From Lama glama (taxonomy: Eukaryota): a stretch of 64,000 nt of DNA. Shown in pieces: positions 5,585-24,269 of the stretch. The stretch lies in contig CM052816.1 of the NCBI GenBank assembly GCA_028534125.1, positions 40,550,001-40,614,000 on the forward strand, read 5' to 3'. The notes below the pieces were generated by a model. That model was not told the origin of the DNA. It did no database searches and saw nothing but the letters and a program-made list of their open reading frames with translations. A program made the position numbers and the translations under genes. The number at the start of each line of letters is the position of its first letter. Positions within the stretch are counted from its first letter, which is position 1.

Positions 5585-5725
5585 AGGGGAGGGTGTAGCT
5601 CAAGTGGCAGAGCGCATGCTTAGCATTTGCAACGCTCTGGGTTAATCCCCAGCACCTCCTCTAAAAAAAAAATAAGTAAGTAAACCTAATTACCTCCTCC
5701 TCTCCCCCAAAAAACTTAAAAAACA
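5585..5725 (+). mobile_element. tRNA-derived SINE, camelid Vic-1 type
   Basis: GGGGAGGGTGTAGCTCAAGTGGCAGAGCGCATGCTTAGC head (A box), degenerate B box, A-rich tail, TSD ttaaaag(c/g)attctg (5571-5584 / 5726-5739). Confidence 0.9.
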
Positions 5726-20395: not shown

Positions 20396-22231
20396 TGCTA
20401 TTTTAAGAATTAAAGACAGTAACAAATTACATAAATATGTAATCTGATTATGCTCATTTTTAATGTATTGGCCACATATATATATAAGTCATATGCATTT
20501 ATATATGTGTATGTTTGCATTGTACACATTCTTTGAATATGTATTAAATGTTAGTTGATATTTTTATTCATATTTATATATTTTAAAATCTGATATGTTG
20601 GAAAGGCTGCCTTTCCAACATGGATTAATGAACATGTGTTAATTATTCTGCTAGAGTTTACTTGGCAATATAATGACTAGTTGAATTAAGTATTGAATTC
20701 TGAATGGATGCAAACATAATAGATTCCTAGAATAAAAAGTAGAGTTTTTTTATTTTTAATTAGTTTTTATATCTGGAAAACAAATTCTGGAATGTATAGA
20801 ATAGAACTAGAAGTAATCAAAGAAATCATGATGTTTTATCTATACTCATTATAGGCCATGTAGGTTTGATAATCTGCTATTATTTTAATCTTATTATAAT
20901 TACTGAACATTTCTTAGTATTTGTAATAGCCAACTAATATGATAGTAGAGATGAACACATGGGAACTTAAACATATCATTTAAATATATGAAAATGATAA
21001 TAGTAATGTCTCATAGTTGTATAGTGACTCTGGTTTTATTTAGTCAACTATTTTAATTAATGTGTCTTTTGCTTCTAGTACTCAATGGTTGAGAAATTAT
21101 ATTTTGCTTCAGCAATTCATGTACAAGAATAGTATGTGAAACAGGAAAATACATGAATACAAATGTTCATAAAAGACATTTTATTGTAATGATTTATTAA
21201 AATAAATTAATATAGTATAAATCATTTTATTGAAAGACATAATGAATAGTTTGATGAATAAACTGCAGGGAACTAATTAACTGGTCATAATTTCTGATTT
21301 TTATTCAGATTAAATCTCAATACTATGTATTCAAGTTGTGAAAGTTTTTGATCTTTTGTATAAAAGATATATGACTGGACATTACTTGTCTCTGTTCATT
21401 GACTTTTTAATGGTTCCAGTTTAGATTTGCATTCTACCATTTATCACCCCAGTACTCACTGGCCAGCAGTCACAAATAGTGTGCTGGACTTAGAGCCACC
21501 AGCTATGGCTACAGTGTCCATGGCAGCTAACTAGATCATTTGGGGATTAGCTCATCAATAATAATTTACTACATTCAACCTTGTTAAATATAAAGCCCAA
21601 GAGACGTGTTAATAAGCACCTACCTCTAAATTTTATGACGCAGTGAGTTGTAGTAATGATTAATCTTGACAATTTGGCCTTGATAATCCAGTAATATTAT
21701 AGAGTACTAGATAATTACATTTAGTAAAATAACAACTATTTTTATAAGGAATAGGTGAATATGTATTATATATCTTATTAGATATTTAGGTCTTCTTATG
21801 ATGGCCTTTCATTCAATTAAATTAATAATTTCAGTAGCCACATTCTGAGTAGCTAATCAAATTGTGTGCAATTCTTTCAAAATAACACAGAGCAAATTTT
21901 ATCTTACAATGAATGGCTACTGAACTTTAACATGAAAATTACTACTATAAGAAGAGTAAATGTGACAGAAATGAACATAAAAGATTTTGTCGCTCAAAAG
22001 CATTTATCCCAGTGTTACATTTTAAATCACATATATGATAGAATATTTTATCAGTTAGTGGACATTGAAATTTGTCTTTGAATCCAACCTGAATGGGTCA
22101 CTGAAATCTGTTCCTGTCCAAAACATCCAGGAGCAGATTTGGTCTGAGGCTACAAAAGGAAAAAAAAAAAAAAACCTTATTCTGTTGCTCGGCATACATG
22201 ACATGTTTTAAAAAAAAATTCTTAGGGGAAT

Positions 22232-23725
22232 ATGTCAGAAATAGTATATTCACACACAAAAAAGTCAGTGCTACATTTTAATTTTTTAATTACCATTTCT
22301 ATTACTTTAACAGAGATAGAGTAAAAGGTACAGGTGTTATAAAGAGAGGACACTCTGAAATACCTGAGGTATAACTAGTCAAAAGTTAGATGACATTTCA
22401 ATCATTCAGGATAGGACAGGAAAACATCAGCACAACAGTGGTGTTGAAGGGAAAGTAAGGAAAACCTTGAATGGGTTAAAAATGGCAGAAGAAGAACCAA
22501 ATGAACCATCATCACAGGTACTTAGAAGAATACTCTGTGATATTCATGATGAGGAGATCCTGTTAATGCTACCAGAAAGAAGCTCATTAAAGAGTCATGT
22601 AAAATGAATTATAAACCTATATTGACCTCCAAACCCAGCATCATTGCATGGAATTGAAATTCCAGAGGTGTATAAAGTGACCAGATGTGGAGAATTATTT
22701 CTTATACACAATTCCAGTGCTCAGGATGACTGAAGAATTCTTACTTACACAATTTATGAGAATATTTGACTTTAAGTGCCAATTCCACACTATTCAGTGA
22801 TGGCACCTTCAAGATGGCACCAACACCATTCACTCAGTTATTTATTGTGCATGGTGTGTTGGGTTTTATTATGCCATTGATTTATGTACTAATAATGAAA
22901 AAGAATAAACTGACTATACTTCCATCAAAAATATATATATAAAATTTAAAGAAAGAAGATACTTACTGATATATATATATATATACACACACACACATAT
23001 ATACATATATACACAGATATATATATATACAAACTCACATTTGCATAGGAAAGAAATCTCAACATGAACCCTTCATTGTGCATGATGGACTTCAAGGTTG
23101 CAAATATGAATGCGATTCAACTACTCCTACCAAATGCATAAATAAAAGGATGCTTGCTTTACTTTTCACAATCAGTGGGCTGAAAAATCTTCTTTGGTTC
23201 TAACGTTGAAGTATATGACAATGGAATGTAACACCCATAAGTGTTTATATGTATTGTTTGGACTTCCGTTTGTGGCTTTGAAAGATGTAACTGAAGCTTT
23301 TGAGTACATTGTGGAGATGAAGAAGAAAATTTAGATGACCTAATGGATTATGTTTTGAGAATGTACGTCCATGAAAGGCAAGGCAGAGACAGAAGACCAG
23401 AAGCTCCAAGATTTGCACCAGAAACTTGGAATGTTTATCCTGAATGGTAATCACAGGATGAACAGTGCAGTGGAAGGCTGGCATGGCAAATTTTAAAAGC
23501 TGATGGTAGTGCATCATCATTCAGTTTGGAGAAGTGTTAATTTGTTCACTGCTTTGCTATTTGTCTTTTATCAGGCTCTTGGTGGTCATATTCACATACA
23601 GCCACCAACCTCACAGTGATGCTGACAAAATCAGGTTCATATAACCAAAATTTTTGACAGATATAAAGAATATAAAGCTAATAATCAGGTCTGTATACTT
23701 GAGAGCAATTACTCATTGACTTTAG
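22232..23725 (+). pseudogene. Decayed FLYWCH-like + MULE DDE transposase
   Basis: Manual translation: YRCY...GKHQH (22329-22433); PPNPASLHGIEIPEVYKVTRCGELFL; FSDGTFKMAPTPFTQLFIVHG (D at 22799); CMMDFKVANMNA (D at 23088); IKGCLLYFSQSV; LFGLPFV; PRFAPETWNVY; HRMNSAVEGWH (E at 23473); ends YLRAITH*L*. Multiple stops, frameshifts and a microsatellite insertion. Start codon is tentative. Confidence 0.9.
22930..23030. repeat. (TA)n/(CA)n low-complexity expansion inside the MULE transposase
   Basis: Directly visible; lies between the two catalytic Asp motifs. Confidence 0.9.
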
Positions 23726-24269
23726 TGTAACCCTGAAAAACTTCATGATGAGGAAGAATAAAAATATTCAGTGGGAAATCCAAAATTCATCATAAATTAT
23801 AATCAAAATAGCATAAATGAAATTTTAACAGAGTTAAATGTTTGTGTTATTTAATGAACCGTAGAGCAAATGTCTCAGTGAGCATTTTGGACAGGACCTA
23901 ATTTCAAGGGCTTTTTGGTAAAGTTAGTTTTAAGAAACTTTTGTTGTGGACCAAATGTCTTAATGGAAGTTATGGACAGGACCAGATGTCTCAATGAATG
24001 TCTTGGACAACACCAAATGTCCTACAATGATTTTATCACATCGTTAGGCATAATATATTTCTTCTTTGTATTTTAAAATAAAATAGAAATATATTCAATT
24101 TTTATTTCAATGATACTAATATATTTCTAGAAACTATTTCACAAAATCACTAAAGATCAGACAAACTTAAGAAAAAAACAAAATTCAAGAAGTGAAATTA
24201 TTCATACTAATGAATATGTCATTTATACCTACTTGGTAGGCAATAATAATTTTTAAAAAGAGGCGTGTT

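Follow-up and report, generated by a model that had tools for sequence, protein, structure and literature searches.

The 64,000-nucleotide stretch of DNA analysed here (the window) comes from Lama glama (GenBank assembly GCA_028534125.1, contig CM052816.1, positions 40,550,001 to 40,614,000 of the forward strand). At positions 22054-24029 it carries a dead, internally deleted copy of a Mutator-like element (MULE) of the Phantom type, a member of an extinct family whose history most likely includes a horizontal transfer linked to whipworms (Trichuris) about 60-110 million years (Myr) ago. We assign this reading as a whole a probability of about 0.85. Whipworms are gut parasites of mammals. An original prediction, made from the letters of the window alone, had described a complete fossil Mutator-like transposon, apparently not Ricksha, of a perhaps rare or undescribed mammalian family, possibly derived from an ancient horizontal invasion.

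The predicted combination of a FLYWCH-like finger with a MULE transposase was borne out, and there is strong support for 22054-24029 being a fossil Mutator-like element whose transposase joined a FLYWCH finger at the N-terminus to a MULE core with the Asp-Asp-Glu (DDE) triad. The homology search proposed as a check of the MULE identity was run with proteins whose FLYWCH and MULE domains are verified by Pfam: in tblastn, P0002 and P0004 matched the locus collinearly at 22329-23685 with E-values of 3.5e-38 and 2.2e-33, respectively. A profile named A1 was built from the C-terminal half of 18 real, unaltered paralog fragments with stops written as X, the N-terminal region being excluded. Against 1.84 billion representative proteins it gave 3971 matches at E<=1e-3, 1088 at E<=1e-10 and 35 at E<=1e-30, many of them proteins of 450-500 amino acids (aa) aligned across their C-terminal halves. 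When 17 of these matches were scanned with Pfam, 16 contained PF10551 (MULE) and 11 contained PF04500 (FLYWCH; 10 over the cut-off); the seventeenth was a C2H2 zinc-finger protein. The tblastn alignment spans the FLYWCH and first-Asp regions, both of which lie outside profile A1. Among 22 stop-free paralog fragments scanned, PF04500 was found in three of the five N-terminal ones, with E-values of 6e-5 in L018 (23.6 bits, equal to the cut-off), 0.01 in L015 and 0.053 in L011. The joint presence of FLYWCH and MULE domains, 9-bp duplications, long sub-repeated ends and foldback derivatives identifies the element as a MULE of the Phantom kind, as this is described in PMC3169594.

The boundaries of the element were also predicted correctly. 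The 9-mer ATTTTATCA at 22045-22053 recurs identically at 24030-24038 and encloses a unit of exactly 1976 bp; the chance of a perfect 9-mer match at both exact boundaries is about 4^-9. Positions 22054 and 24029 are fixed independently as well, because the termini of paralogs coincide there: ATTAG..GACATTTGG is the start of five other family copies, and ..CCAAATGTCCTGCAAGG is the end of family copies. Imperfect 9-bp duplications flank the paralogs L014, L018 and L015 (7 of 9 bases) and L017 (5 of 9), and the same comparison of flanks revealed no matching duplication at L004. The inverted ends are seen both in the aligned paralog termini and in the copy itself, where an arm of 42 nt at 22103-22144 pairs with one at 23949-23990 at 79% complementarity. 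They are inverted repeats made of a recurring GGACATTTGGTCCTGTCC-type motif. About 55 nt are common to the two ends of a typical copy, the 22054-24029 copy having extra motif units, and the terminal repeat is about 55-120 bp long in the aligned termini of the family. Tandem Repeats Finder (TRF) reports a period of 31 at 23948-24030 in the 3' end.

Between the ends lies a decayed transposase frame that begins at an ATG and requires three reading frames to be followed, with 20 stops in the longest matched piece (Table 1). The motifs listed in the original prediction (PPNP, DGTFK..FTQLF.VH, MMDF, GCLLYFSQ, LPFV, PRFAPETWNVY, RMNSAVEGWH and YLRAITH) are all present in the translations and, by alignment, stand in the same order as in real MULE proteins. 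In alignments the family has DGTFK, MMDFE, GCLFH and NNAVEGWH at the positions of the D, D, C-x-x-H and E motifs; the D of DGTFK, the D of MMDFE and the E of NNAVEGWH are taken to be catalytic by analogy with the superfamily (Hua-Van & Capy 2008). The zinc finger of this copy retains HQH but has lost its second Cys region, which now reads ..YRCYKERTL*NT*... The position of the copy-specific microsatellite is occupied by about 10 nt in other family copies. The copy carries stops, several frameshifts and a microsatellite insertion and shows nothing that would suggest a role today; it is ordinary junk DNA and, as had been predicted, non-functional.

Table 1. Features of the element at 22054-24029 and its flanks, in window coordinates.
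Feature	Position	Strand	Remark
Left 9-bp target-site duplication, ATTTTATCA	22045..22053	.	identical to 24030-24038
5' terminal inverted repeat, two ~45-bp units with GGACATTTGGTCCTGTCC-like motif	22054..22150	+	outer unit is extra relative to typical copies
Junction and leader before the open reading frame (ORF)	22139..22231	+	family sequence rejoined after ~820-bp skip; A15 run at 22160-22174
Decayed transposase reading frame, ~480 codons in the family	22232..~23762	+	P0002 and P0004 collinear over 22329-23685
FLYWCH-type zinc-finger region	22232..22440	+	22320-22556 aligns to the FLYWCH fragment of L015
First catalytic Asp codon (SDGTFK)	22799..22801	+	aligned to CDGTFK of T. suis P0002
AT/AC microsatellite block within the frame, specific to this copy	~22905..23012	.	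TRF rows at 22969-23031
Second catalytic Asp codon (MMDFK; family MMDFE)	23088..23090	+	from alignments
C-x-x-H motif, degenerate: GCLLYFSQ, H to Y	23151..23162	+	L016 has GCLLHLSQ
Catalytic Glu codon (RMNSAVEGWH)	23473..23475	+	from alignments
3' terminal inverted repeat, three motif units	23861..24029	+	units at 23861-23905, 23946-23990 and 23977-24021
Right 9-bp target-site duplication, ATTTTATCA	24030..24038	.	

The original prediction suggested a search for paralogous copies and for miniature inverted-repeat transposable elements (MITEs), and both were found in the host genome, which is 2.35 Gb in size and is shown to be mammalian by an intact kappa-casein exon (PF00997, E 1.5e-63). The family is not rare as had been supposed: its long copies number at least 30 here and its short foldback MITEs at least 40, and fragments occur in other public assemblies. 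The element DNA as a query gave 68 matches from 40 scored of 244 candidates, with identities of 67-90% (69-79% for the long matches). The T. suis protein P0159 gave 87 matches from 83 scored of 132 candidates, with a best E of 6.5e-77. Stops are present in every genomic P0159 match longer than 52 residues, and there is no intact copy among the matches listed.

The full form of the family is about 2.6 kb long, as in L014 (2622 bp); G000:C32:21620913-21623534 is the span of one 2.6-kb copy. In full-length copies a non-coding block of about 820-860 bp lies between the 5' terminal repeat and the frame, and it is this block that is missing at 22054-24029. When 19 copies were aligned, 650 or more of its 801 consensus positions were present in 9 of them and a part in 4, whereas 6 (the locus copy included) had almost none. 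The block is located at L014:2254-3195 on the minus strand, and is likewise kept in L015, L017, L018, L022 and L025. Used as a query, it returned 47 matches from 66 candidates, namely family copies plus many sites with the terminal repeat alone; the genome DNA search skips very common words, which limits the specificity that can be claimed for the block as well as the HERVL/MLT2B result given below. Pfam gave no match on the open stretches of the block, which may be a promoter, a second gene or a captured fragment. An origin from the endogenous retrovirus ERV-L was considered and rejected, the 921-bp block not behaving as an abundant long terminal repeat in the genome search. At the locus, the junction falls in a short TTGGTC-type similarity between a terminal-repeat unit and the sequence just before the frame, which fits an internal deletion. 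The copy is a deletion derivative with both ends and the whole coding region; to this extent the term "complete" was justified, and it fails for the missing ~820 bp of 5' subterminal sequence.

All 14 fetched loci that match by the terminal inverted repeat (TIR) only, L033-L046, turned out to be foldback MITEs of about 170-300 bp that consist of the two ends; one example is G000:C4:58700349-58700567 (L036:3450-3668). With a MITE as query, 40 of 190 candidates were scored and yielded 90 matches with identities of 66-91%. The MITEs are thus somewhat more alike than the long copies and may have spread at a later time. In nine MITE loci Rfam found sub-threshold look-alikes only (plant MIR2630 and MIR2670, and mir-4504), which are read as chance matches to long hairpins, the scores being far below the Rfam cut-offs. 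Another deletion derivative is L004 (G000:C404480, minus strand, 3002-1496), in which the 5' end and about 500 bp of the 5' block are fused directly to a remainder made up of the C-terminal half of the frame with the 3' end; this copy, which has no matching target duplication, may be rearranged. Two paralogs have received later insertions: a tRNA-like short interspersed nuclear element (SINE) with an A-rich tail in L007 (1120-1336) and a 236-bp block in L018 (800-1036). Since these repeats sit within the MULE copies, L007 and L018 predate the repeat families inserted in them.

Eutherian genomes have a catalogued MuDR family, Ricksha (RICKSHA, RICKSHA_0, Ricksha_a-c). The odds are even that the present family is its ORF-bearing autonomous form or one of its subfamilies, and equally even that it shares its ends with Ricksha, the comparison being with the published descriptions only. 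According to the part of the source cited, the human genome has no listed MuDR family other than Ricksha, with the entries RICKSHA, RICKSHA_0 and Ricksha_a (PMC5753468). An excerpt of an earlier paper describes RICKSHA and RICKSHA_0 with 79-bp terminal inverted repeats, RICKSHA_0 having the same ends as RICKSHA and a different internal part that forms an 855-bp graph edge (PMC1431705). The ends found here are likewise long, and the 5' block of ~820-860 bp is near the length of that internal edge, which is a coincidence of size only. MuDR class, eutherian host and old age are shared with Ricksha, RICKSHA_0 and Ricksha_a too, and fragments of the present family on many public contigs suggest a wide host range. 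However, by description RICKSHA is a composite with a 3' HERVL part and MLT2B; such content was seen in none of the 14 TIR-only loci, a small sample, nor elsewhere in the family here. The 5' block query matches only copies of the present family, and no element of about 1 kb with the structure TIR-855-TIR was seen; L026 lacks the 3' end and is a 5' fragment. Furthermore, the catalogued elements are described as non-autonomous: in the passages cited, a 2019 survey does not list the three placental Repbase MuDR entries as autonomous, finds no vertebrate MULE transposase detectable and states that vertebrate MULEs need re-evaluation (PMC6446971), whereas the transposase is obvious here. If the Ricksha identity is true, the element is already present in Repbase/Dfam and its novelty is limited to the whipworm link.

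That link rests on the closest relatives of the family. The top taxon-labelled matches in the profile and protein searches are all from Trichuris, so the closest labelled relatives indeed lie outside mammals, and the suggestion of an ancient horizontal invasion, at first a guess, is now a hypothesis that has support and a partner lineage. The Trichuris side of the comparison consists of proteins, five in number: P0159 (516 aa, E 1.6e-83), P0160 (496 aa, on a 2.79-Mb contig), P0161 and P0152/P0002 (KFD47203.1 and KHJ40130.1, respectively) of T. suis, and P0004 (CDW58273.1) of T. trichiura, which is annotated as "FLYWCH and MULE domain containing protein". Between the family consensus and P0159, a single high-scoring segment pair of 491 aa shows 66.4% identity; the consensus is 63% identical to P0161 and P0152, 52% to P0160 and 47% to P0004, as against 33-45% for the 11 non-Trichuris proteins tried. 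This similarity is not an artefact of the consensus, because real fragments show it too: P0159 is matched at 62% identity by L005, an open fragment of 144 aa (E 4e-54), and at 50% over 111 aa by the N-terminal fragment L015 (E 1e-38). In the literature searched (supplements excluded), no paper was found that links Trichuris with FLYWCH/MULE elements or Ricksha.

It could be supposed that an ancient metazoan MULE lineage was kept by vertical descent in both nematodes and mammals. FLYWCH-type MULEs are reported to be widespread in animals in the portion of the review cited (PMC3169594), and the profile matches are many, but we consider this explanation highly improbable in view of how the proteins group. 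P0159, with its 66% identity to the mammalian consensus, is 52% identical to its own T. suis paralog P0160 and only 39% identical to a thrips homolog. A quick tree of 50 rows placed the consensus and all five Trichuris proteins in one clade with a support of 100 in the Shimodaira-Hasegawa-like approximate likelihood ratio test (SH-aLRT). A careful tree of 32 rows joined the five Trichuris proteins with the consensus and with five real copies (22054-24029 among them) in a clade supported at 100/100, which leaves out all 21 other rows, that is, the thrips protein and 20 further relatives. The path from the consensus to P0159 is 0.40 long vs. about 0.87 between P0159 and P0160 within T. suis. Cluster look-ups of 20 proteins returned the taxon labels Trichuris and thrips only, and no vertebrate or mammalian protein of the family is among the taxon-labelled matches (2 of 63 rows labelled in the largest set; the other sets have 3 and 5). 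Horizontal transfer is favoured over vertical descent because the nematode element is nearer to the mammalian fossil than to its arthropod relatives, and as close to it as to its own paralogs.

Still less probable is that the Trichuris proteins represent pig or human host DNA contaminating the worm assemblies: although worms are collected from the host gut and parasite/host mixing is documented, as in the part cited of a report on Trichuris/Trichinella-like DNA in a shrew assembly (PMC6542046), the worm genes, whose contigs range from 42 kb to 2.79 Mb, are uninterrupted over 481-566 aa, keep the D, D and E motifs and are therefore not decayed host DNA, they come from T. trichiura as well as from T. 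suis under three locus-tag prefixes (M513, M514, D918), they differ by 31-51% among themselves and by 31-54% from the mammalian consensus, and the mammalian copies examined are all stop-ridden.

As for the spread of the family, the locus was found in 20 sequencing runs under six organism labels with a word share of at least 0.86; since runs of six labels share it, the insertion is present in close relatives and probably fixed in them. Other public assemblies contain short open pieces of the family, with 53-86% identity to the consensus and 44-65% to P0159. The exact fossil fragment P0163 recurs on 34 public contigs and P0169 on 26. The best matches of P0176, P0003, P0163 and P0169 in this genome are at 60-67%, those of P0163 and P0169 being at about 60%, a level at which orthologs in distant mammals and paralogs are not separable. 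The recurrence on 26-34 contigs together with an identity of only ~60-67% here indicates that the family is also present in one or more further hosts that have been sequenced more often.

Several points weigh against the reading of a whipworm-linked Phantom-type element. None of the 13 stop-free ORF fragments of the locus has a Pfam match at E<=1, and the MULE identity rests for that reason on homologs and paralogs. The consensus used in the comparisons is a rough majority rule of 19 copies in which 11 stops remain. P0162 and P0048 branch just outside the clade of mammalian and Trichuris sequences, and inside it, the mammalian rows and two Trichuris groups form an unresolved trichotomy in both trees, so the trees do not fix the direction of transfer or a nesting within Trichuris. 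A closer unsampled donor or a third-party source may exist. The date is approximate as well. The Kimura two-parameter (K2P) distance to the consensus has a median of 0.164 in 19 copies (range 0.126-0.244) and is 0.179 for the 22054-24029 copy. The mammalian substitution rate is taken as about 2.2e-9 per site per year, and the family age of very roughly 60-110 Myr is conditional on this assumed figure.

A mechanism can be proposed for the living family from its membership in the Mutator superfamily. The family would have moved by cut and paste. Its transposase of ~480-490 aa would bind the repeated GGACATTTGGTCC-type motifs in the long TIRs, presumably via the N-terminal FLYWCH finger, while an RNase-H-like DDE core (the D of DGTFK, the D of MMDFE, C-x-x-H and the E of NNAVEGWH) would cut and rejoin DNA, leaving 9-bp duplications. 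The same enzyme would also have mobilised deletion derivatives and the ~200-bp foldback MITEs that retain only the ends. The 22054-24029 copy, which lacks the ~820 bp of 5' non-coding sequence, inserted at ATTTTATCA and then underwent neutral decay by stops, frameshifts and the microsatellite insertion. Most likely, a horizontal transfer in which the Trichuris lineage took part carried the family into or out of the mammalian germ line roughly 60-110 Myr ago. A fuller scenario, in which a Phantom-type MULE crossed between the Trichuris lineage and the early placental germ line at that time, amplified and died, with the family either uncatalogued or catalogued without its coding nature or origin being recognised, is offered tentatively and seems to us somewhat doubtful in its entirety.

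Among known systems, the Phantom subclass, as characterised in the parts cited of two papers (PMC3169594, PMC6446971), agrees with the present family in having the FLYWCH finger and the MULE DDE core in one transposase of ~480-500 aa, 9-bp duplications, long or foldback-like sub-repeated terminal repeats and MITE derivatives. In contrast to it, the family described here resides in a mammal and is long extinct, the excerpt of the 2019 survey having confirmed no vertebrate MULE transposase. The Trichuris FLYWCH and MULE proteins share the architecture and the length with the mammalian family, besides the identity and the clade reported above, but they have open frames, and they may be the products of mobile elements with similar ends or of domesticated genes. 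Muta1 of Aedes aegypti is likewise an animal MULE; its cut-and-paste movement has been investigated according to the section cited (PMC5499845), and it may serve as a model for the movement of the family, although it is a distant relative and is active.

Some further observations were made in the genome and in the window. Four loci that do not belong to the family, G000:C1:6651-6974, C102397:143644-143997 and 709047-709400, and C26:29639909-29640226, match the T. suis MULE protein weakly and distantly, with 27-34% identity and E-values of 2.7e-7 to 7.2e-6; these loci may be relics of another MULE-like lineage or of a domesticated gene. Rfam gave no match at gathering score in the 64-kb window. 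ARAGORN reported one tRNA-Leu-like sequence at 5589-5661, distant from the element, which, given its place in a mammalian intergenic region, is more likely the head of a SINE or a pseudogene than a gene.

The 2019 Mutator survey asks, in the passage cited, whether MULEs are really absent from vertebrates (PMC6446971). For one mammal this question is answered by the present data, in which the transposase is unmistakable via the paralogs. In the part cited of a preprint, only one of the 211 confirmed transfers recorded in a database belongs to the Mutator superfamily (10.1101/2021.09.26.461848), and the whipworm link is a candidate host-parasite transfer in this superfamily. If the fuller scenario outlined above is true, the family would provide the first clearly demonstrated mammalian MULE transposase and the first transfer of a Mutator element between a helminth parasite and a mammalian host.

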